A stretch of 64,000 nucleotides of DNA, taken from the NCBI RefSeq assembly GCF_988242995.1, contig NZ_OZ547043.1. One strand, given 5' to 3'. The notes beneath the pieces were generated by a model. It was not told where the DNA came from and did not search any database. It worked only from the letters and a program-made list of their open reading frames with translations. How positions within the stretch are numbered: position 1 is the stretch's first letter; each line of letters begins with the position of its first letter. This document shows positions 9,079 to 41,598 of this stretch, in pieces. Both the position numbers and the translations under genes were made by a program.

Positions 9079-12000
9079 ATGAGCGGAAAACCGGCGGCGC
9101 GACAGGGCGATATGACCCGCAAGGGACTGGATATTGTGCAGGGTTCAGCGGGGGTGCTGATAGGTGCGCCGACGGGAGTGGCCTGCTCGGTGTGTCCCAA
9201 CAGCCCGGTGGAGGAGCAGAAGGGTAACCCGGTGAACCCGCTACTGGGTGCGAAGGTGCTGCCGGGCGAGACGGATCTTGCGCTGCCCGGCCCGTTGCCG
9301 TTTATTCTTTCCCGCGCCTACAGCAGCTACCGGACCAGGACACCCGCGCCGGTGGGGGTGTTTGGTCCCGGCTGGAAAGCGCCCTTCGATATCCGCTTAC
9401 AGGTTCATGAGCGGGAACTGATACTCAACGACAGTGGCGGCAGGAGCATTCACTTTGAGCCGCTGTTTCCCGGCGAGATAAGCTACAGCCGCAGCGAGTC
9501 GTTCTGGCTGGCAAGGGGCGGGGTGGCGGAGCAGCACAGTTCGCAGCCGCTAAGCGCGCTCTGGCAGGTGCTGCCGGAGAGTCTCCGCTTAAGCCCGCAT
9601 GTGTACCTGGCGACAAACAGCCTTCAGGGGCCGTGGTGGATACTCGGCTGGCCGGAGCGGGTACCGGAGGCGGACGAGGTGCTGCCGCCGGAGCCGCCCG
9701 CATACCGGGTGCTGACGGGCGTGGTGGACGGCTTCGGGCGGACGCTGGCCTTCCACCGGGCGGCAGAGGGGGAAGCGGCGGGCGCGGTGACGGGGGTGAC
9801 GGACGGCGCGGGCCGCCGTTTTCATCTGGCGCTGACCACACAGGCGCAGCGGGCGAAAGCCTTCCGTAAACAGCGCGAGTCTTCTTTATCTTCTCCGGCC
9901 AGTCCCCGTTCTGTTTCCTCTTCTCAGTTTTTCCCCGACACGCTGCCCACCGGTACAGAGTACGGTGCCGATAACGGTATCCGGCTGGAGGCGGTATGGC
10001 TGACACACGACCCGGCATACCCGGATGAACTGCCGACTGCGCCGCTGGCGCGCTACACGTACACGGCCAGCGGAGAACTGCGGGCGGTGTATGACCGCAG
10101 CGGTACGCAGGTGCGCGGGTTTACTTATGATGCGGAGCACGCCGGGCGGATGGTGGCGCACCATTATGCGGGGAGGCCGGAGAGCCGCTACCGGTATGAT
10201 GATACCGGTCGGGTGACGGAGCAGGTCAACCCGGAGGGGCTGGACTACCGCTTTGAGTACGGGCAGGACCGCGTGACCATCACGGACAGCCTGAACCGGC
10301 GGGAGGTGCTGTACACGGAGGGCGAGGGCGGCCTGAAGCGGGTGGTGAAGAAGGAGTATGGGGACGGGAGCATCACCCGCAGCGAGTATGATGAGGCGGG
10401 GAGGCTGAAGGCGCAGACGGATGCGGCGGGACGGCGGACGGAGTACCGGCTGCATATGGCGTCGGGAAAGCTGACTTCAGTGATACTGCCGGACGGCAGG
10501 ACGGTACGGTATGGTTACAACAACCAGTTGCAACTGACGTCAGTGACGTACCCGGACGGGCTGCGCCGCAGCCGGAAATATGACCGTCAGGGCAGGCTGG
10601 CGGAAGAGGTCTCGCGCAACGGTAACATTACGCGCTGGTTTTATGATTCTTCCCGCAGTGGCCTGCCCTGTGCGGTGGAAGACGGAACCGGGGTGAGGCG
10701 GAGAATAACGCGAAACCGGTACGGTCAGCTTCAGGCATTTACGGACTGTTCAGGGTACACGACGCGGTATGAATACGACCGGTACGGTCAGAGGACGGCG
10801 GTTCACCGGGAGGAAGGCATCAGCACTTACAGCAGTTATAACCCGCGTGGTCAACTGGTCAGTCAGAAGGATGCGCAGGGACGTGAAACCCGTTATGAGT
10901 ACAGCGCCGCAGGCGACCTCACCGCTATCATTGCCCCGAACGGCAGCCGGAGTGAGACACAGTATGATGCGTGGGGAAAGGCCGTCAGCACCACGCAGGG
11001 CGGACTGACGCGCAGCATGGAGTATGACGCCGCCGGGAGCATCACCGTGCTGACCAACGAGAACGGCAGCCAGTCCACGTTCCGGTATGACCCGGTGGAC
11101 AGGCTGACGGAGCAGCGCGGCTTTGACGGCAGGACACAGCGTTACCGGTACAGCGCCACAGGGCAGCTCATCCGCAGCGAGGATGAGGGGCAGGTCACGC
11201 AGTGGTACTACGATGACGCCGGGCGCATCACGCACCGGACGGTGAACGGCGACCCGGCGGAGCAGTGGCAGTATGACGACCACGGCTGGCTGACAGAAAT
11301 CAGCCACCTGAGCGAAGGCCACCGTGTGGCGGTCCACTACGGCTATGACGATAAAGGCCGCCTGACGGGCGAACGGCAGACGGTGGAGAACCAGGAGACG
11401 GGGGAGATGCTGTGGGAGCATGAGACGAGGCACGTCTACAGCGAACAGGGGCTGGCGACCCGTCAGGAGCCGGACGGTCTGCCGCCGGTGGAGTGGCTGA
11501 CGTATGGCAGCGGTTATCTTGCGGGGATGAAGCTGGGCGGAACGCCGCTGGTCGAGTACACGCGGGACCGGCTGCACCGTGAGACGGCCCGCAGCTTCGG
11601 CGGGGCGGGCAGTACAGCGGGGTACGAACAGGCCACGGCGTACACCCTCACAGGGCAGCTCCGGAGCAGGCACCTGAACCTTCCGCAGCTTGACCGTGAG
11701 TATACGTGGAACGATAACGGGCAACTGGTGCGCATCAGCGGCCCGCAGGAGAGCCGGAAGTACCGTTACAGCGACACGGGAAGACTGACGGGCGTTCACA
11801 CCACGGCGGCGAACCTGGATATCGATATCCCGTATGCGACGGACCCGGCAGGAAACCGGCTGCCGGACCCGGAACTGCACCCGGACAGCACCTTCACGGC
11901 GTGGCCGGATAACCGCATCACGGAAGATGCGCACTATGTCTACCGCTACGATGAATACGGCAGGCTGGCGGAGAAGACGGACCGTATCCCGGAAGGGGTG

Positions 12001-13290
12001 ATACGGATGCACGACGAGCGGACGCACCACTACCATTACGACAGCCAGCACCGCCTGGTGTTCTACACGCGGATACAGCACGGCGAGCCACAGGTGGAGA
12101 GCCGCTACCTCTATGACCCGCTGGGCCGCCGGACGGGGAAACGGGTGTGGCGGCGGGAGCGTGACCTGACGGGGTGGATGTCGCTGTCGCGTAAACCGGA
12201 GGAGACCTGGTACGGGTGGGACGGTGACAGGCTGACGACGGTACAGACCGGCACCACGCGTATCCAGACGGTATACCAGCCGGGGAGCTTCACGCCGCTC
12301 ATCAGAATCGAAACAGAGAATGGTGAACAGGCGAAGGCGCGGCACCGGAGTCTGGCGGAGGTGTTGCAGGAGGACACGGGGGTGACGCTACCGGCGGAGC
12401 TGTCGGTGATGCTGGGGAGGCTGGAGCGGGAACTGCGCGCGGGTGCGGTGAGTGCGGAGAGTGAGGCATGGCTTCAGCAGTGCGGGCTGACGGCGGAACA
12501 GATGAAAAACCAGATGGAGGCGGAATACATCCCGGAGAGGACACTTCATCTTTACCACTGCGACCACCGGGGGCTGCCGCAGGCGCTCATCAGCCCGGAA
12601 GGGGAAACGGCGTGGCAGGGGGAGTATGACGAGTGGGGAAACCTGCTGGGCGAAACCAGCGCGCAGCAACTGCAACAGCCGTACCGTCTGCCGGGGCAGC
12701 AGTATGATGAGGAGTCGGGGCTGTACTATAACCGCAACCGGTACTATGACCCGTTGCAGGGGCGGTATATCACCCAGGATCCCATTGGGCTAAGAGGTGC
12801 ATGGAACCTGTATCAGTATCCATTGAATCCAACTACTAAGATAGATCCGTTGGGTCTCTCCGGAGAAGATTCCATAGAGCAGTCAGGTCCATCTTGGTTG
12901 ATTGCTGACCCCATGGATAAATACAGACAACAGGCAGTGATGGGTTTAACAAAATTGTGGGATGATACCTTTAGTCAAGAGAAGACTAAATGTTTACCTA
13001 CGACACCTGAAAACATCAGGATGGTTGTGGCCAACAGTCCCTTGTTGACAGTACAACAAAAAGTCTCAGTACCCGTAGTAGCTCACTACGTACAAATGCT
13101 GGAAGATGGTAGTGGAGCACCACCGGTTGATATGGATGGGAATGTGATTGTTAATGGTAATCACAGGATGGTTGCGGGTCTGTTATGTGATAAACTTCCT
13201 CCTGAGCGGCCAGGTACGCGTCCATTATCGGCACCACTATATCCGTTTAGCCAAATTTTTCCGGAGTTAGATGATTGGGGGAATAGATGA
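9079..13290 (+). CDS. rhsE: Rhs-family protein: YD-repeat core with a variable C-terminal toxin domain
   Basis: 1403-aa ORF starting [13 protein letters not shown]…; many YD/RHS repeats (…[12 protein letters not shown]…, …YEYDRYGQ…); core ends with the canonical …[31 protein letters not shown] (DPLGL at 12844-12858), followed by ~143 aa of unrelated AT-rich sequence; RBS aagga upstream. Confidence 0.9.
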
Positions 13291-13772
13291 TAAGAATCGC
13301 GTTTTTAATAACCAATAAATTTCTTGATATAGATAGTACCACTCTTGCTGGATATGATTTTAGCGGGATGGATCTACATCGTGCCATCCTCAATGGTTAT
13401 TGTCTTGATGGGGCGAAATTTGAAAATTCCCATTTAAGAAATGTAATGATTCAACATACATCAACTAGAAATGCTGTCTTTCGCAATGCGGCTCTGATGA
13501 ACGCTATTCTTAATAACTCAGATTTCACTGGAAGTGACTTTAGTAATTCAAGGTCAATAGGTGCAAACTTTGAGGGTGCTATATTAACTAATTCAACCTT
13601 TTGCAATGCAGACGTTAAAGATTCAAATTTTTCTGGTGCTGACTTATGTGGCGCTAATTTATTATGTGATAGATATGGCGATATAAATATAACAGGTGCA
13701 TTATTCGATAAAAACACCTCATGGTTAGAAGGTTTTGATCCTATAGCTCATGGGGCTATATTAAAAATATGA
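13287..13772 (+). CDS. ydcD: Pentapeptide-repeat protein, probable Rhs immunity protein
   Basis: 161-aa ORF whose ATG overlaps the rhsE stop (ATGA at 13287-13290); tandem A(D/N)LXX-type repeats (…[64 protein letters not shown]…); AT-rich like the rhsE tip. Confidence 0.75.
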
Positions 13773-14100
13773 CAAGGATCATAACTCATTATTTTCTGTG
13801 TCAGTAACACTGATGTGGAAAGTAGACTTACTTGCAATAGCCACCGGGATCTGCTGTTGAAAGCCGATCCCAAACAACCCCGGTTGCTGTGGTAAAGAGT
13901 CATAGTAGCGAGCGCAGGGGGAGTGCTCAGATTATATGAGATACAGTGAAATGAATAAACCCGAACCTGTGTTGACGTGTCGTTAGTCCTAAGCGGCATC
14001 AGAACCGGAGGTTTCGTGATACCGCCGTGATAAATTTACGGGTGAATTCCGAATGCTACGTAAAGGGTGTCCGGCGTATAGCAGACATCAGGATAAAAGT

Positions 14101-15494
14101 ATGAAAGCCCACGCCCCACAAGGCTTTACCGGATGATGAGTTTTTAAACTACGACATTACTTTTACAGTAAAATCCATCATGTTGGTATTTTCTCTCGAA
14201 CAATTTGACGATCCACGGAAAGATCACGTAACGCTGCTTTTTTGTACTAGACAATTCGCATTTTATGTTTAACAATTGAGATATTCCTCATTACCTGAAG
14301 CTGTTTTTTATTGCGTATACATGATCAAATACTCCTTACATAATTAAGGAGAACAAAATGGAACTTAAAAAATTGATGGAACATATTTCTATTATCCCCG
14401 ATTACAGACAAGCCTGGAAAGTGGAACATAAATTTTCGGATATTCTACTGTTGACTATTTGTGCCGTTATTTCGGGTGCAGAAGGCTGGGAAGATATAGA
14501 GGATTTTGGGGAAACACATCTCGATTTTTTGAAGCAATATGGTGATTTTGATAATGGTATTCCTGTTCACGATACCATTGCCAGAGTTGTATCCTGTATC
14601 AGTCCTGCAAAATTTCACGAGTGCTTTATTAACTGGATGCGTGACTGCCATTCTTCAGATGATAAAGACGTCATCGCAATTGATGGAAAAACACTCCGGC
14701 ATTCTTATGACAAGAGTCGCCGCAAGGGAGCGATTCATGTCATTAGTGCGTTCTCAACAATGCACAGTCTGGTTATCGGACAGATCAGGACGGATGAGAA
14801 ATCCAATGAGATTACAGCTATTCCAGAACTTCTTAACATGCTGGATATTAAAGGAAAAATCATCACAACTGATGCGATGGGTTGCCAGAAAGATATTGCA
14901 GAGAAGATACAAAAACAGGGCGGTGATTATTTATTCGCTGTAAAAGGAAACCAGGGGCGGCTAAATAAAGCCTTCGAGGAAAAATTTCCGCTGAAAGAAT
15001 TAAATAATCCAGAGCATGACAGTTACGCAATTAGTGAAAAGAGTCACGGCAGAGAAGAAATCCGTCTTCACATTGTTTGCGATGTCCCTGATGAACTTAT
15101 TGATTTCACGTTTGAATGGAAAGGTCTGAAGAAATTATGCGTGGCAGTCTCCTTTCGGTCAATAATAGCAGAACAAAAGAAAGAGCCAGAAATGACGGTC
15201 AGATATTATATCAGTTCTGCTGATTTAACCGCAGAGAAGTTCGCCACAGCAATCCGAAACCACTGGCACGTGGAGAATAAGCTGCACTGGCGTCTGGACG
15301 TGGTAATGAATGAAGACGACTGCAAAATAAGAAGAGGAAATGCAGCAGAATTATTTTCAGGGATACGGCACATGGCTATTAATATTTTAACGAATGATAA
15401 GATATTTAAGGCAGGGTTAAGACGTAAGATGCGAAAAGCAGCCATGGACAGAAACTACCTGGCGTCAGTCCTTGCTGGGTGCGGGCTTTCGTAA
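14101..15494 (+). mobile_element. H-repeat (ISAs1-family) element, copy 2, approximate boundaries
   Basis: Leader 14101-14215 matches the copy-1 leader (atgaaagccc(g/a)cgccccacaag…cgacattacttttа-like block …caatttgac); the 3' end gcgggctttcg at 15481-15491 is inverted relative to the 5' end; contains an intact transposase ORF. Confidence 0.5.
14358..15494 (+). CDS. ydcC: H-repeat-associated protein (ISAs1-family DDE transposase), intact
   Basis: 378-aa ORF; DDE-type transposase features; paralogous to the interrupted ORF at 7521..8657; RBS aaggag upstream. Confidence 0.85.
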
Positions 15495-32719: not shown

Positions 32720-32875
32720 AGGCAGTGGTGCGTTTTTCTACCGCTATTGAGGTAGGTCAATTTGCGCAGGCGGATTATTTTGTGGCAAACACGTGTTCTT
32801 TTTGATTTCGCGCAAAAAGATTCAGAATTTTACTGTTAGTTTCCTCGCGCAGTAATACCCCTGAAAAAAGAGGAA
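32720..32875 (+). promoter_or_regulatory. fdnG promoter region with candidate NarL heptamers and an FNR-like half-site
   Basis: TACCCCT and TACCGCT heptamers (NarL consensus TACYYMT) and TTGATttcgCGCAA resembling the FNR TTGAT-N4-ATCAA site upstream of the fdnG ATG; assignment rests on known fdnG regulation. Confidence 0.4.
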
Positions 32876-32879
32876 AGCA

Positions 32880-35800
32880 ATGGACGTCAGTCGCAGACAA
32901 TTTTTTAAAATCTGCGCGGGCGGTATGGCTGGAACAACGGTAGCGGCATTGGGCTTTGCCCCGAAGCAAGCACTGGCTCAGGCGCGAAACTATAAATTAT
33001 TACGCGCGAAAGAGATCCGTAACACCTGCACATACTGTTCCGTAGGTTGCGGGCTATTGATGTATAGCCTGGGTGATGGCGCGAAAAACGCCAGAGAAGC
33101 GATTTATCACATTGAAGGTGACCCGGATCATCCGGTAAGCCGTGGTGCGCTGTGCCCGAAAGGGGCCGGTTTGCTGGATTACGTCAACAGCGAAAACCGT
33201 CTGCGCTACCCGGAATATCGTGCGCCAGGTTCTGACAAATGGCAGCGCATTAGCTGGGATGAAGCATTCTCCCGTATTGCGAAGCTGATGAAAGCTGACC
33301 GTGACGCTAACTTTATTGAAAAGAACGAGCAGGGCGTAACGGTAAACCGTTGGCTTTCTACCGGTATGCTGTGTGCCTCCGGTGCCAGCAACGAAACCGG
33401 GATGCTGACTCAAAAATTTGCCCGCTCCCTCGGGATGCTGGCGGTAGACAACCAGGCGCGCGTCTGACACGGACCAACGGTAGCAAGTCTTGCTCCAACA
33501 TTTGGTCGCGGTGCGATGACCAACCACTGGGTGGATATCAAAAACGCTAACGTCGTAATGGTAATGGGCGGTAACGCTGCTGAAGCGCATCCCGTCGGTT
33601 TCCGCTGGGCGATGGAAGCGAAAAACAACAACGATGCAACCTTGATCGTTGTCGATCCCCGTTTTACGCGTACCGCTTCTGTAGCGGATATTTACGCACC
33701 TATTCGTTCCGGTACGGACATTACGTTCCTGTCTGGCGTTTTGCGCTACCTGATCGAAAACAACAAAATCAATGCCGAATACGTTAAGCATTACACCAAT
33801 GCCAGCCTGCTGGTGCGTGATGATTTTGCTTTCGAAGACGGTCTGTTCAGCGGCTACGACGCTGAAAAACGCCAGTACGATAAATCGTCCTGGAACTATC
33901 AGTTCGATGAAAACGGCTATGCGAAACGCGATGAAACACTGACTCATCCGCGCTGTGTGTGGAACTTGCTGAAAGAGCACGTTTCCCGCTACACGCCGGA
34001 CGTCGTTGAAAACATCTGCGGTACGCCAAAAGCAGACTTCCTGAAAGTGTGTGAAGTGCTGGCCTCCACCAGCGCGCCGGATCGCACAACCACCTTCCTG
34101 TACGCGCTGGGCTGGACGCAGCACACCGTGGGTGCGCAGAACATCCGCACCATGGCGATGATCCAATTGCTGCTCGGTAACATGGGTATGGCTGGTGGCG
34201 GCGTGAACGCATTGCGTGGTCACTCCAACATTCAGGGCCTGACCGACTTAGGTCTGCTCTCAACCAGCCTGCCGGGTTATCTGACGCTGCCGTCAGAAAA
34301 ACAGGTTGATTTGCAGTCGTATCTGGAAGCGAATACGCCGAAAGCGACGCTGGCTGATCAGGTGAACTACTGGAGCAACTATCCGAAGTTCTTCGTTAGC
34401 CTGATGAAATCTTTCTACGGTGATGCTGCACAGAAAGAGAACAACTGGGGCTATGACTGGCTGCCGAAGTGGGACCAGACCTACGACGTCATCAAGTATT
34501 TCAACATGATGGATGAAGGCAAAGTCACCGGTTATTTCTGCCAGGGCTTTAACCCGGTTGCGTCCTTCCCGGACAAAAACAAAGTGGTGAGCTGCCTGAG
34601 CAAGCTGAAGTACATGGTGGTTATCGATCCGCTGGTGACTGAAACCTCTACCTTCTGGCAGAACCACGGCGAGTCGAACGATGTCGATCCGGCGTCCATT
34701 CAGACTGAAGTATTCCGTCTGCCTTCGACCTGCTTTGCTGAAGAAGATGGTTCTATTGCTAACTCCGGTCGCTGGTTGCAGTGGCACTGGAAAGGTCAGG
34801 ACGCGCCGGGCGAAGCGCGTAACGACGGCGAAATTCTGGCGGGTATCTACCATCATCTGCGCGAGCTGTACCAGGCCGAAGGTGGTAAAGGCGTAGAACC
34901 GCTGATGAAGATGAGCTGGAACTACAAGCAGCCGCACGAACCGCAATCTGACGAAGTAGCTAAAGAGAACAACGGCTACGCGCTGGAAGATCTCTATGAT
35001 GCCAATGGCGTGCTGATTGCGAAGAAAGGTCAGTTGCTGAGTAGCTTTGCGCATCTGCGTGATGACGGTACAACCGCATCTTCTTGCTGGATCTACACCG
35101 GTAGCTGGACAGAGCAGGGCAACCAGATGGCTAACCGCGATAACTCCGACCCGTCCGGTCTGGGGAATACGCTGGGATGGGCCTGGGCGTGGCCGCTCAA
35201 CCGTCGCGTACTCTACAACCGTGCTTCGGCGGATATCAACGGTAAACCGTGGGATCCGAAACGGATGCTGATCCAGTGGAACGGCAGCAAGTGGACGGGT
35301 AACGATATTCCGGACTTCGGCAATGCCGCGCCAGGTACACCAACCGGACCGTTTATCATGCAGCCGGAAGGGATGGGACGCCTGTTTGCCATCAACAAAA
35401 TGGCGGAAGGTCCGTTCCCGGAACACTACGAGCCAATCGAAACGCCGCTGGGCACTAACCCGCTGCATCCGAACGTGGTGTCTAACCCGGTTGTTCGTCT
35501 GTATGAACAAGACGCGCTGCGGATGGGTAAAAAAGAGCAGTTCCCGTATGTGGGTACGACCTATCGTCTGACCGAGCACTTCCACACCTGGACCAAGCAC
35601 GCGTTGCTCAACGCAATTGCTCAGCCGGAACAGTTTGTGGAAATCAGCGAAACGCTGGCGGCGGCGAAAGGCATTAATAATGGCGATCGTGTCACTGTCT
35701 CAAGCAAGCGTGGCTTTATCCGCGCGGTGGCGGTGGTAACGCGCCGTCTGAAACCGCTGAATGTAAACGGTCAGCAGGTTGAAACGGTGGGTATTCCAAT

Positions 35801-35927
35801 CCACTGGGGCTTTGAGGGTGTCGCGCGTAAAGGTTATATCGCTAACACTCTGACGCCGAATGTCGGTGATGCAAACTCGCAAACGCCGGAATATAAAGCG
35901 TTCTTAGTCAACATCGAGAAGGCGTAA
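32880..35927 (+). CDS. fdnG: Formate dehydrogenase-N alpha subunit (selenocysteine-containing; Tat signal)
   Basis: ORFs 32880..33467 and 33516..35927 are one frame joined through TGA at 33465-33467 (…ARV-U-HGPTVASLAPTFGRGAMTNHW…); twin-arginine signal MDVSRRQFFKICAGG…; total 1015 codons. Confidence 0.9.
33468..33512 (+). other. Putative SECIS stem-loop directing selenocysteine insertion at the fdnG UGA
   Basis: Sequence immediately 3' of the UGA has complementary arms (accaa…ttggt) around a gcaagtcttgc hairpin; position fits a bacterial SECIS. Confidence 0.5.
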
Positions 35928-35939
35928 GGGGGCGAACAG

Positions 35940-36824
35940 ATGGCTATGGAAACGCAGGACATTATCAAAAGGTCCGCAACTAACTCCATCACGCCGCCTT
36001 CTCAGGTGCGTGATTACAAAGCAGAAGTCGCGAAACTTATCGACGTTTCCACCTGTATCGGCTGTAAAGCCTGTCAGGTGGCGTGTTCAGAGTGGAACGA
36101 CATCCGTGATGAAGTGGGGCACTGCGTCGGGGTTTACGATAACCCCGCCGATCTGAGCGCCAAGTCCTGGACGGTGATGCGCTTTAGCGAAACCGAACAG
36201 AACGGCAAGCTGGAGTGGCTGATCCGTAAAGACGGCTGTATGCACTGTGAAGATCCGGGCTGCCTGAAGGCGTGCCCGTCTGCTGGTGCAATCATTCAGT
36301 ACGCTAACGGGATTGTCGATTTCCAGTCGGAAAACTGCATCGGCTGTGGTTACTGCATTGCCGGGTGTCCGTTTAATATTCCGCGCCTCAACAAAGAGGA
36401 TAACCGGGTATATAAATGCACGCTCTGCGTCGATCGCGTCAGCGTCGGCCAGGAACCGGCTTGTGTGAAAACCTGTCCGACCGGGGCTATCCACTTCGGC
36501 ACCAAGAAGGAGATGCTGGAGCTGGCGGAACAGCGCGTGGCGAAACTGAAAGCGCGTGGTTACGAACATGCTGGCGTCTACAACCCGGAAGGGGTCGGTG
36601 GTACGCACGTTATGTACGTGCTGCATCACGCCGATCAGCCGGAGCTGTATCACGGTCTGCCGAAAGATCCGAAGATCGATACCTCGGTAAGCCTGTGGAA
36701 AGGCGCGTTGAAACCGCTGGCAGCGGCTGGCTTTATTGCCACTTTTGCCGGGTTGATTTTCCATTACATCGGTATTGGCCCGAATAAGGAAGTGGACGAT
36801 GACGAGGAGGATCATCATGAGTAA
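35940..36824 (+). CDS. fdnH: Formate dehydrogenase-N beta (Fe-S) subunit
   Basis: 294-aa ORF with four Cys clusters ([45 protein letters not shown]…CVKTCP) and a C-terminal transmembrane anchor. Confidence 0.9.
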
Positions 36825-37470
36825 GTCGAAAATGATTGTGCGCACCAAATTTATTGATCGCGCCTGTCACTGGACCGTGGTGATTTGCTTCTTTCTGGTG
36901 GCGCTGTCCGGGATTTCGTTCTTCTTCCCGACGCTGCAATGGCTGACGCAAACCTTCGGTACGCCGCAGATGGGGCGCATTTTGCACCCGTTCTTCGGCA
37001 TTGCGATTTTCGTCGCGCTGATGTTTATGTTTGTGCGTTTTGTGCATCACAACATCCCGGATAAGAAAGATATTCCGTGGCTGTTGAACATTGTCGAAGT
37101 ATTAAAAGGCAATGAGCACAAAGTGGCGGATGTTGGTAAGTACAACGCCGGGCAAAAGATGATGTTCTGGTCGATCATGAGCATGATTTTCGTGCTGCTG
37201 GTGACCGGGGTGATTATCTGGCGTCCGTACTTTGCGCAGTACTTCCCGATGCAGGTTGTTCGCTACAGCCTGCTGATTCACGCGGCTGCGGGTATCATCC
37301 TGATCCACGCCATCCTGATCCATATGTATATGGCATTCTGGGTGAAAGGATCGATTAAAGGGATGATCGAAGGGAAGGTGAGCCGTCGCTGGGCGAAGAA
37401 ACACCATCCACGCTGGTATCGTGAAATCGAGAAGGCAGAAGCGAAAAAAGAGAGTGAAGAAGGGATATAA
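36817..37470 (+). CDS. fdnI: Formate dehydrogenase-N gamma (cytochrome b556) subunit
   Basis: ATG at 36817 gives [22 protein letters not shown]… (217 aa); overlaps the fdnH stop by 8 nt; membrane protein with haem-ligand histidines. Confidence 0.9.
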
Positions 37471-37488: not shown

Positions 37489-37525
37489 CTGAAAATGGCG
37501 CTTTAAGAAGCGCCATTTTTTTTAT
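37489..37525. terminator. Rho-independent terminator after fdnI, shared with convergent yddM
   Basis: Hairpin aaaatggcgc-tttaag-aagcgccatttt followed by a T-run (ttttttttatt). Confidence 0.65.
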
Positions 37526-37806
37526 TGCGTAACCAGACGGCGCAGTCGCGACACATCCACCGTTTTTTCTGCCTCTGCCAGACTCCAGGCGTTTTGCAGA
37601 TTCAGCCACATTTGCGGCGAACTGCCGATCACCACGGAAAGTTTAATCGCCATTTCTGGTGTCAAAGCTGCTTTTCCGGTCAGCAATCGGCTTGCCGTTG
37701 AGGGCGCAATTTCCATTGCTCTGGCAAACTCGCGCAGGCTGACATTAAGTTCGTCCAGTGATTCCTGAATAATGTCCCCCGGGCGGGGATGATTGGCCAT
37801 TTTCAT
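37522..37806 (-). CDS. yddM: HigA-like XRE-family helix-turn-helix protein (antitoxin-like, no adjacent toxin gene)
   Basis: ATG at 37804-37806 gives a 94-aa product [57 protein letters not shown]… with an HTH motif. Confidence 0.7.
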
Positions 37807-37951
37807 TAGTGTCTTTACTCTCAGTAGCGTTCCTTCTCTGGGAACACTATCATTATTGTTCCTTCCTACGCAACAATAATCCATTTAGCCATTTCGTGTT
37901 GGAGAGTGTGCGATGCTGCGACCCGAACATGGCAGTCGCAGCAAAGGATTC

Positions 37952-40889: not shown

Positions 40890-41598
40890 TAAATATCCTC
40901 CGGCATAGCCGGAGGTTTTTCAAATGCGCCTGTAAGGCTCTGTTACCAGCCGCGCCCTAACAGGCGCACACGATCTGACATTTGCATCCAACTTCGTTAC
41001 TTACGGCCCGTAAACGGGCTGCCCGGATAGGGAATCGATAACTGCTCTCCCATTTTATCCTCTTCAAGCTGGTGCTTTATGTAGTCCTGTATCTTCGCCG
41101 TGTTCTTACCCACCGTATCGACATAGTACCCTCGGCACCAGAACTCCCTGTTTCTGTATTTGAATTTCAAATCCCCAAACTGCTCGTAAAGCATCAGACT
41201 GCTTTTCCCTTTCAGATATCCCATAAAGCCGGATACGCTCATTTTGGGTGGGATTTCCACAAGCATATGGATATGATCTGCGCAGCACTCTGCTTCCAGA
41301 ATCCGTACGCTTTTCCACTCACACAGCTTTCTCAAAATACTGCCTATCGCCCTACGCTTCTCTCCGTAAAACGCCAGTCTTCGGTATTTCGGCGCAAAAA
41401 CTATGTGATATTTACAGTTCCAGCGGGTGTGCGCTAAGCTCTTTTCGTCCCCCATTGGGACCCCCTTTTGATTTCTTGTTTGACACTTGCAGTTGCCAGA
41501 CCGCAAGGTGTTTTAACAAATCAAAAGGGGTTTTAATAACTGGCTCAAAGCTGAAAGCTTTCCGGAACCCCCAGCCTAGCTGGGGGTTTTCTGTGCAC
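40890..41598 (-). mobile_element. IS200-family (IS200/IS605) insertion sequence, about 0.71 kb
   Basis: Single Y1 (HUH) transposase ORF flanked by subterminal GC-rich hairpins: cccccagc-cta-gctggggg (41566-41584) and cctccggc-ata-gccggagg (40897-40915), plus a long RBS-sequestering stem (cccccttttgattt…aaatcaaaaggggg) just upstream of tnpA. Boundaries are approximate. Confidence 0.65.
40997..41455 (-). CDS. tnpA: IS200-type transposase TnpA (Y1 HUH family)
   Basis: ATG at 41453-41455 gives a 152-aa product MGDEKSLAHTRWNCKYHIVFAPKYRR…ADHIHMLVEIPPK…; HUH motif (HIH) and catalytic Tyr region (…YIKHQ…). Confidence 0.8.
   Translation of the reverse strand: MGDEKSLAHTRWNCKYHIVFAPKYRRLAFYGEKRRAIGSILRKLCEWKSVRILEAECCADHIHMLVEIPPKMSVSGFMGYLKGKSSLMLYEQFGDLKFKYRNREFWCRGYYVDTVGKNTAKIQDYIKHQLEEDKMGEQLSIPYPGSPFTGRK

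Follow-up and report, generated by a model that had tools for sequence, protein, structure and literature searches.

The closest described counterparts of the locus analysed here are the formate dehydrogenase genes fdnG (b1474), fdoG (formate dehydrogenase-O alpha) and fdhF (formate dehydrogenase-H) of Escherichia coli K-12. The selenocysteine site of E. coli fdnG was reportedly described in 1991 and is said to have been seen in a crystal structure in 2002, and we take the fdhF SECIS to be the experimentally dissected reference element. Our account of the published criteria is based on two reviews (PMC13188914, PMC8659212) and one primary paper (PMC4513850). In the bacterial SECIS model, the apical loop has 3-9 nt and the upper stem 4-16 bp, loop position 1 or 2 is a G, with G or U as the usual next base, a spacer of 16-37 nt lies between UGA and loop, and the minimum free energy (MFE) is -7.5 kcal/mol or lower (PMC13188914). 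The fdhF paradigm is a 17-18-nt upper stem-loop that starts 11 nt past the UGA, in which U17 bulges out and the loop includes G23 and U24; all three bases have been reported as SelB determinants of this element (PMC8659212). Throughout, hairpin positions are counted from the U of UGA, which is position 1.

The window, by which we mean the whole 64-kb stretch of DNA that we analysed, comes from an E. coli-like genome and contains its operon fdnGHI. The gene for the alpha subunit of formate dehydrogenase-N (FDH-N) is followed by those for the beta (FdnH) and gamma (FdnI) subunits, and K-12 shares the gene order yddG / fdnG-fdnH-fdnI / yddM. The features of the operon are as follows.

32880..35927, + strand: fdnG, FDH-N alpha subunit (catalytic, molybdopterin and Fe4S4); 1015 codons plus TAA, with a UGA at codon 196
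32880..32978, + strand: Tat signal peptide region of FdnG, MDVSRRQFFKICAGG...ALA, recognized by the SRRQFFK motif in the translation and ending at what we take to be the cleavage position
33465..33467, + strand: UGA codon 196, selenocysteine, the FDH-N active-site residue; aligns with X196 of 1kqf_A
35940..36824, + strand: fdnH, iron-sulfur beta subunit (TIGR01582 at 482 bits, cut-off 334.7; RefSeq synteny)
36817..37470, + strand: fdnI, cytochrome b gamma subunit (NF007558 at 486.5 bits, cut-off 339)
37491..37520, + strand: intrinsic-terminator-like hairpin (13 pairs, then a T run) found by a consensus scan 21 nt past the fdnI stop, probably the end of the operon

The fdnI ORF opens at 36775, but the match to NF007558 runs from residue 15, which places the start at 36817 and gives a length of 654 nt, the same as in RefSeq. 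Among complete genomes, the best matches reach 99.7% for fdnG and about 99% across 25 kb.

The fdnG reading frame and codon 196

The fdnG frame, from the ATG at 32880 to the TAA at 35925-35927, contains an in-frame TGA at 33465-33467. It is preceded by (33465-32880)/3 = 195 codons and is thus codon 196, and the read-through product has 1015 aa. A preceding sequence-only reading of this DNA had stated that this TGA splits fdnG into ORFs of 195 aa and 803 aa, and the ORF listing agrees, with ORFs at 32880..33467 and 33516..35927. The frame is open from 33468 on, and the 803-aa ORF begins at 33516 because this is merely the first ATG past the TGA. Two antisense ORFs within fdnG, 33054-34223 (389 aa) and 34293-35600 (435 aa), have no Pfam match, and we set them aside as by-products of the coding strand.

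The translation around the TGA reads ...DNQARV*HGPTVASLAPT.... Chain A of PDB 1kqf, the solved structure of E. coli FdnG, aligns with the product over residues 1-1015 (E = 0) and has an X (selenocysteine) at residue 196. The NCBIfam profile TIGR01553 is matched on both sides of the UGA: the N-terminal part corresponds to profile positions 1-194 (280.7 bits), and the C-terminal part alone corresponds to positions 196-1009 with 1319.4 bits, above the cut-off of 814.2. The UGA coincides with the sole absent profile position, 195. It also interrupts the Pfam domain Molybdopterin (PF00384), of which profile positions 1-68 are found before it and 99-300 after it. The product is a full-length FDH-N alpha subunit, above 814.2 bits and with the active-site position aligned. 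These comparisons establish the identity of the gene and the position of the codon, and they bear out the earlier assignment of the TGA to the known selenocysteine position of FDH-N.

The further warning that automated calling will mis-annotate fdnG holds for naive ORF finders, but not for the RefSeq records that we inspected, which carry a single 3048-nt CDS with no pseudogene flag. In 5425 of 5426 E. coli genomes, the homologous locus carries the name fdnG in RefSeq. In annotation, the two ORFs of 195 and 803 aa are to be joined as one 1015-aa selenoprotein gene and not treated as a pseudogene, and current RefSeq annotation already joins them.

The SECIS element and its homologues

The region downstream of the UGA was compared with the Rfam families SECIS_3 (RF01989, fdnG/fdoG type; gathering score 63 bits) and SECIS_2 (RF01988, fdhF type; gathering score 70 bits). 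SECIS_3 has a single match in the 64-kb window, and SECIS_2 has no match in the window at its gathering threshold. The window element is of the fdnG/fdoG type rather than the fdhF type, and consists of the following parts.

33462..33520, + strand: SECIS, Rfam SECIS_3 (84.3 bits, E 1.4e-18, model positions 1-59 of 59)
33470..33510, + strand: complete SECIS hairpin, comprising the lower helix and the upper stem-loop, from the MFE structure
33479..33496, + strand: upper stem-loop, the presumed SelB-binding minihelix, from the covariance model and the MFE fold

Pairing in the hairpin stops at 33510, and the Rfam model reaches 33520. The upper stem consists of the pairs G15-C32, G16-C31, A18-U30, G19-C29, C20-G28, A21-U27 and A22-U26, with the bulged U17 (33481) between G16-C31 and A18-U30, and is capped by the apical loop G23 U24 C25 (33487-33489). 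These dimensions lie within the published ranges: the loop GUC has 3 nt, or 5 nt with A22-U26 unpaired, and begins with G23-U24 (33487-33488), the stem has 7 pairs and one bulge, and 19 nt (positions 4-22, 33468-33486) separate the UGA from the loop. As in the fdhF paradigm, 11 nt (positions 4-14) separate the minihelix (positions 15-32) from the UGA, its U17 bulges out, and its loop contains G23 and U24.

For the window sequence, we describe the lower helix in the MFE register, and only tentatively. In this register, 8/8 pairs form (C6-G46, G7-C45, G8-C43, A9-U42, C10-G41, C11-G40, A12-U39 and A13-U38, with G44 bulged), whereas the Rfam register includes two pairs, A5-C45 and A9-G41, that are non-standard in the window sequence. 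Relatives with C9/C42 form 9/9 pairs in the Rfam register, and both registers give 86% pairing of the lower helix among 69 homologous sequences. It seems that this helix is kept by switching between the two pairing registers, and not by simple compensatory changes.

The foldability of the hairpin, which the sequence-only reading had pointed out, proved to be of little use. The segment 33465-33512 does fold into a hairpin, and its MFE of -13.8 kcal/mol is below the published limit. However, this limit is a poor discriminator here, since shuffled versions average -10.35, and an equal or lower energy is reached by 21 of 200 dinucleotide-preserving shuffles. We dropped thermodynamic stability as evidence, as the z-scores are -1.44 for these 48 nt and +0.29 for a 111-nt context, neither of them significant. 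Foldability alone does not exceed chance, and the absence of a stable hairpin is therefore a weak test for refuting a SECIS. What does exceed chance is the match to the covariance model and the covariation across species.

The interpretation of the hairpin as a SECIS was nevertheless upheld by the comparison with the K-12 elements. K-12 fdnG has the same length (3048 nt) and the same UGA codon (196) as the window gene, the two agree at all 63 nt from -3 to +60, and both score 84.3 bits with SECIS_3; the recoding signal has zero differences from that of K-12 fdnG. The element of K-12 fdoG also scores 84.3 bits with SECIS_3, and its UGA is likewise codon 196, in the same context (ARV-U-HGPTVASLAPT). 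This gene is a paralogue at another locus, outside the window, with 76.8% amino-acid and 74.7% nucleotide identity overall. The longest identical run between fdnG and K-12 fdoG in the whole gene, 71 nt, is found precisely at 33462-33532, from 3 nt before the UGA, and the degenerate codons among codons 197-215 are identical in 18/18 cases, against a background of 57.7%. Gene conversion between the paralogues could be a partial source of this 71-nt identity.

The aligned fdhF element, in contrast, belongs to a different family but shares the positions of the SelB determinants. It scores 87.1 bits with SECIS_2 and merely 35.8 bits with SECIS_3, below the gathering score of 63. In common with the window element, it has a hairpin directly after the UGA, the motif RV-U-HGP and the presumed SelB mechanism, and its G15-G16, bulged U17, G19-C20-A21 and loop G23-U24-C25 are at equal distances from the UGA. 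On the other hand, fdhF-type elements show 25-29 differences per 70 nt. The fdhF loop is GGUC, closed by A21-U26, whereas the window loop is GUC (or AGUCU), with one extra pair; the lower helix also differs, as does the encoded peptide (SVAGLHQS versus TVASLAPT).

Even if the UGA is read through, the hairpin could in principle be a mere by-product of the conserved peptide HGPTVASLAPTFGRG, and thus a non-functional RNA. The peptide past the selenocysteine is indeed highly conserved, the first and second codon positions fix most of the paired positions, and the stability of the hairpin, as noted, is not above chance. Third codon positions, however, tell against this reading. We gathered homologues by a protein-motif pattern and obtained 69 distinct fdnG-type elements from Entero-, Pseudomonas- and Burkholderia-type and other genomes. 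The pattern fixed the UGA, G7-G8, C10-C11, G16-U17 and G19-C20, so that the invariance of those bases is not evidence. All of the 120 pattern-matching stretches, which come from homologues in many genera, translate as V*HGP, but as the pattern required TGA, they are uninformative on how frequently the TGA is conserved.

In the 69 distinct homologues, 99.6% of cells in the upper helix are paired, and two of its pairs are compensatory at synonymous sites. The third positions 21 and 27 co-vary perfectly (AU 47, CG 18, GC 4, unpaired 0), and positions 18 and 30 do likewise (GC 53, AU 10, GU 6). The observed covariation score was reached by 0/500 shuffles, a count that is not a probability, as homologous sequences are related. 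When the partners are slid out of register, pairing falls to 26-58%. Moreover, G15, U17, G23 and U24 are invariant in 69/69 (U17 being fixed by the search pattern). G15 (Thr ACN, four-fold degenerate) and U24 (Ser AGY or Gly GGN) are third-codon positions, whereas the third positions 9, 12, 33, 36, 48 and 51 vary freely. The agreement of fdnG and fdoG at degenerate codons and the score of the structure-aware model also argue against a by-product of the peptide, which we consider very improbable. Pairing is shown by these data to be evolutionarily maintained at synonymous sites, and they provide a clean example of a coding-region RNA structure that is kept via synonymous positions.

Decoding of the UGA

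We now return to the reading that the UGA at 33465-33467 is decoded as selenocysteine via SECIS and SelB and is not a stop, to which we assign a probability of about 97%. If the TGA were instead a genuine nonsense mutation, fdnG would be a pseudogene or a pair of genes encoding 195 aa and 803 aa, as the mechanical list of ORFs and the meaning of UGA in the standard code would have it. However, the same TGA is found in K-12 fdnG, E. coli 042 fdnG and K-12 fdoG (in K-12 fdhF, a TGA is present at the equivalent codon, 140), and 5406 E. coli records show 99% identity or more to the 101 nt that surround it. The 819 codons past the UGA contain no further stop and only 2 amino-acid differences from K-12, and the whole protein is identical to K-12 FdnG at 1012/1015 residues (the changes from K-12 to the window being E127D, L342F and S666A). 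At the nucleotide level, there are 59 scattered substitutions (1.9%), none of them in gene nt 560-660. With 59 nucleotide changes but 3 amino-acid changes, both halves of fdnG are therefore under purifying selection. In addition, one Pfam domain and one NCBIfam profile span the UGA, a residue is present at 196 in the solved structure, and RefSeq has no pseudogene flag. We consider a nonsense mutation even less probable than a by-product hairpin. The recoding site is already known and is ordinary described biology, not a broken gene; the discovery value is accordingly small, as this is the textbook E. coli fdnG site with a curated Rfam family.

The machinery for selenocysteine insertion was considered at the level of the species. 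Among complete E. coli genomes, which serve here as a species-wide proxy, 5425/5426 have selAB and selD, and 5424/5426 have selC (tRNA-Sec). Within the 64-kb window, there is no blastn match to the K-12 copies of selA, selB, selC or selD, and no tRNA genes were found.

Decoding of the UGA outside the SelB pathway, e.g. by near-cognate Trp or Cys to give a Cys- or Trp-containing FdnG, is the least probable alternative: low-level SelB-independent misreading of UGA does exist in E. coli and the window itself is silent on which tRNA reads the codon, but every reported SelB determinant is at its canonical position, the identical K-12 sequence is a classical selenoprotein gene (Berg et al. 1991, cited in PMC13188914), a non-standard residue is present at 196 in the crystal structure, and essentially every E. 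coli genome has the selenocysteine machinery. On the evidence against each, we rejected the pseudogene, the amino-acid by-product and the non-selenocysteine read-through.

From the 100% identity to the K-12 fdnG and fdoG elements, we infer that SelB would bind the window element and that read-through would depend on SelB and on selenium. By analogy with the established E. coli system, the decoding of the UGA as selenocysteine would proceed as follows. The mRNA directly 3′ of the UGA would fold into the SECIS hairpin (33470-33510), whose minihelix (33479-33496) would display the bulged U17 and the loop G-U at positions 23-24. SelB, carrying GTP and Sec-tRNA(Sec), would bind the minihelix, and the ribosome would melt the lower helix as the UGA enters the A site. 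From its tethered position, SelB would then hand over Sec-tRNA(Sec) in competition with, and ahead of, termination by RF2, so that selenocysteine is inserted and translation goes on for 819 codons to the TAA at 35925.

The recoding signal of enterobacterial fdnG and fdoG might also be longer than the modelled SECIS, for example by a 3′ extension that affects the approach of the ribosome or refolding, although we regard this as unlikely. In 20 distinct enterobacterial fdnG/fdoG segments, a single codon is used at each position from the UGA to +21 (33465-33530), except at +2 and +11. This stretch extends about 20 nt beyond the base of the helix, and the identity to fdoG reaches 33532. The apparent switching of the lower helix between two registers would fit the same reading. 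Codon bias or gene conversion between fdnG and fdoG could be an alternative source of the extended codon uniformity.

The in-frame UGA codon of fdnG

In the window, fdnG, the gene encoding the alpha subunit of formate dehydrogenase-N, carries an in-frame TGA at 33465-33467, with exactly 195 codons between the ATG at 32880 and this TGA. On translation, the same frame is open from 33468 to a TAA at 35925-35927. A mechanical ORF list recovers a 195-aa ORF (32880..33467) and an 803-aa ORF (33516..35927), as the sequence-only reading had reported; the second begins at 33516 because this is the first ATG 3′ of the TGA. The further claim that automated calling mis-annotates fdnG is true of such a naive list, but not of RefSeq, which already handles the recoding: fdnG is a single 3048-nt CDS, without a pseudogene flag, in E. 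coli 042, K-12 and strain HCP5S3_I2. The gene and its downstream neighbours are located as follows.

32880..35927, + strand: fdnG (translation, 1kqf, TIGR01553)
35940-36824: fdnH, directly after fdnG
36817-37470: fdnI, after fdnH
37491-37520: terminator-like hairpin 3′ of fdnI (consensus scan)

The read-through product has 1015 residues, and matches PDB 1kqf chain A, the major subunit of the E. coli nitrate-inducible formate dehydrogenase, over 1-1015. The peptide context of the codon is ...MLAVDNQARV-UGA-HGPTVASLAPTFGRG... The deposited chain has an X (non-standard residue) at 196, and the UGA in the window aligns with it, which supports the earlier selenocysteine (Sec) interpretation. The NCBIfam profile TIGR01553 (formate dehydrogenase-N alpha) aligns over 1-194 with the part upstream of the UGA and over 196-1009 with the part downstream, and the UGA therefore falls on the single missing profile column. 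The UGA also interrupts the Pfam Molybdopterin domain.

The SECIS element and inferred selenocysteine insertion

The Rfam family SECIS_3 (RF01989) matches 33462-33520 (+ strand) over the full model length with 84.3 bits (gathering score 63; E 1.4e-18), and this is the sole SECIS match within the 64-kb window. The fold is given below, with the U of the UGA as position 1, such that the window coordinate is 33464 plus the hairpin position.

Lower helix: C6-G46, G7-C45, G8-C43, A9-U42, C10-G41, C11-G40, A12-U39, A13-U38
Upper stem-loop: G15-C32, G16-C31, bulged U17, A18-U30, G19-C29, C20-G28, A21-U27, A22-U26
Apical loop: G23-U24-C25

The fold and the family match together bear out the proposal that the 45 nt after the TGA can form a SECIS hairpin, and the hairpin agrees with a published bacterial SECIS model on four of four criteria (PMC13188914). 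Folding had also been suggested as a check. The hairpin does form, at -13.8 kcal/mol, but stability is a weak test, as shuffled sequences average -10.35 +/- 2.39 kcal/mol (z -1.44; 21 of 200 as good or better) and a 111-nt context fold gives a z of +0.29. Stability alone is not above chance; the support for the hairpin is comparative.

Alignment to known elements had been suggested too. The elements of K-12 fdnG and of its formate dehydrogenase-O paralogue, fdoG, have the same SECIS_3 score as that in the window and are identical to it over at least 63 nt. In contrast, the element of K-12 fdhF (formate dehydrogenase-H) belongs to a separate family, with 87.1 bits on SECIS_2 and merely 35.8 bits on SECIS_3; it has G15 G16 U17, G19 C20 A21 and G23 U24 C25 at the offsets seen in the window. 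U17, G23 and U24 are the essential positions reported for the fdhF element (PMC8659212), and the window shares these as well as a minihelix start 11 nt past the UGA (PMC8659212). The recoding signal is thus identical to that of K-12 fdnG/fdoG and a member of SECIS_3, distinct from the fdhF-type SECIS_2. It is the known fdnG Sec196 codon with its SECIS, and nothing new; the original finding of UGA-encoded selenocysteine in fdnG is credited to Berg et al. 1991, as cited in PMC13188914.

By analogy with the mechanism established in E. coli, the upper minihelix would be bound by SelB carrying GTP and Sec-tRNA(Sec), and the lower helix would be unwound by the ribosome as the UGA enters the A site; SelB would then deliver Sec-tRNA(Sec), and the SECIS would refold for the next ribosome (PMC13188914). 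In vivo, the fdhF element is recoded with an efficiency of about 30-40%; termination by RF2 takes place mainly on ribosomes where Sec delivery has failed (PMC4513850). Within the 64-kb window there is no tRNA gene and no match to K-12 selA, selB, selC or selD; as a species-level proxy, among 5426 complete E. coli genomes, K-12 selA-selB and selD each have a match in 5425 and selC has one in 5424. Reading of the UGA by a tRNA other than Sec-tRNA finds no support, given that every SelB determinant is present in the element and that the element is identical to that of the classical selenoprotein gene.

Constraint on the RNA

The window's fdnG and K-12 fdoG share 74.7% nucleotide identity, and degenerate codons for identical amino acids are the same in only 57.7% of cases. 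The longest identical run in the gene is the 71 nt at 33462-33532, which begins 3 nt 5′ of the UGA, and in codons 197-215 all 18 of 18 degenerate codons are identical. A scan across species, each represented by a single genome, used a pattern based solely on the peptide A-R-V-UGA-H-G-P-x-V-A (which fixes the UGA and several 5′-arm bases). It yielded at least 120 loci and, from these, a gap-free alignment of 69 distinct fdnG-type 59-mers.

In these 69 elements, 99.6% of upper-helix cells are paired. Pair 21-27 is A-U in 47, C-G in 18 and G-C in 4, and is never unpaired; pair 18-30 is G-C in 53, A-U in 10 and G-U in 6. Both lie at third-codon positions (GCN with CUN or UUG, and GUN with GCN, respectively), so compensatory changes leave no trace in the protein. 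The observed covariation score is reached by 0 of 500 shuffles, a count that is not a probability since the sequences are related. When the 3′ partners are shifted by 1-3 columns, pairing falls from 92% to 26-58%. Two third-codon bases, G15 in Thr ACN and U24 in Ser AGY or Gly GGN, are each invariant (69/69), and third positions 9, 12, 33, 36, 48 and 51 vary freely. The idea that the hairpin is a mere by-product of peptide conservation is contradicted by these compensatory and invariant synonymous positions.

Of 5426 complete E. coli genomes, megablast finds the locus in 5425, with the annotation yddG / fdnG / fdnH, and a 101-nt stretch around the UGA has an identity of 99% or more in 5406 records. 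Relative to K-12 fdnG, the window has 59 nucleotide differences, which change only 3 amino acids, and the roughly 40 nt to either side of the UGA contain none of them. A nonsense mutation or fdnG pseudogene is excluded for practical purposes, as the TGA is conserved, the downstream frame is intact and under selective constraint, and domains span the codon.

The lower helix (33468-33477 with 33502-33510) is less sharply defined than the upper one, and its pairing reaches 86% in each of two registers (n=69). A9/U42 sequences (the window, Enterobacterales) form 8/8 pairs in the MFE register, with G44 bulged, and C9/C42 sequences (Pseudomonas and Burkholderia types) form 9/9 pairs in the Rfam register, where C11 is bulged. 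The lower helix seems to be maintained in these two registers, which fits its reported tolerance: unpaired bases there cost only about a quarter of the read-through (PMC8659212).

The fdoG identity extends about 20 nt beyond the hairpin base at 33510. In 20 distinct enterobacterial fdnG/fdoG segments, a single-codon freeze extends from codon 0 through codon +21, as far as 33530; because the core up to +56 was used to choose this subset, only +57 to +66 constitute independent evidence. Codons +16 to +20 are variable in a broader set of 104 sequences. Partial circularity of the enterobacterial set, codon bias and fdnG/fdoG gene conversion could account for the freeze, and an extended signal is also possible. 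This freeze and the two-register helix are the only points left mildly unexplained.

The operon and other features of the window

The window is an E. coli-like chromosome segment (narZYWV-narU ... ompC-like porin, yddG, fdnGHI, yddM, adhP, maeA, sra, bdm, osmC, ddp, dosCP). Upstream of fdnG, TTGAT-TTCG-CGCAA at 32802-32815 (+), about 65-78 nt before the start codon, resembles an FNR half-palindrome, TTGAT-N4-ATCAA, and is a candidate site. Expression of fdnGHI is anaerobic and nitrate-induced, which an FNR-like site would fit. A sigma-70 consensus scan gave no promoter-like site on the + strand around 32802-32815. Antisense to fdnG are two long ORFs, at 33054-34223 (-, 389 aa) and 34293-35600 (-, 435 aa); neither has a Pfam match, and they are probably by-products of coding-strand composition. 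Further features are as follows.

13840-13948, + strand: group-II-D1D4-2 (RF01999), Rfam 48 bits (gathering score 36; E 1.2e-06)
37522-37884, - strand: yddM-like HTH (HigA-family antitoxin) ORF, 120 aa as listed
41465-41588, - strand: STnc490 (RF01405), an Hfq-binding sRNA, full-length match, 146.4 bits

The RF01999 match sits in non-coding sequence flanked by a pentapeptide-repeat ORF (13287-13772), itself directly after a 1403-aa Rhs-like ORF (9079-13290), and by an ISAs1-type DDE transposase (14358-15494). The match has no adjoining reverse-transcriptase ORF and may represent either a fragment of an intron or a marginal false positive. Between narU and the porin gene are two adjoining leucine-rich-repeat (LRR) ORFs (418 and 421 aa; 27660-30244, -). 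The closest complete genomes have one LRR protein and a fragment there, one of them also an IS200 transposase, and this differing annotation indicates that the spot is variable between strains. The yddM-like gene is 285 nt in the annotation of related genomes, and in E. coli 042 a RelE/ParE toxin gene adjoins it. By synteny, the STnc490 match lies in the bdm-osmC intergenic region. Outside the window, six tandem naRNA4 (CssrE, REP-like) matches lie downstream of K-12 fdhF, between gltP and yjcO, spanning 304-932 of the K-12 fdhF-region extract.
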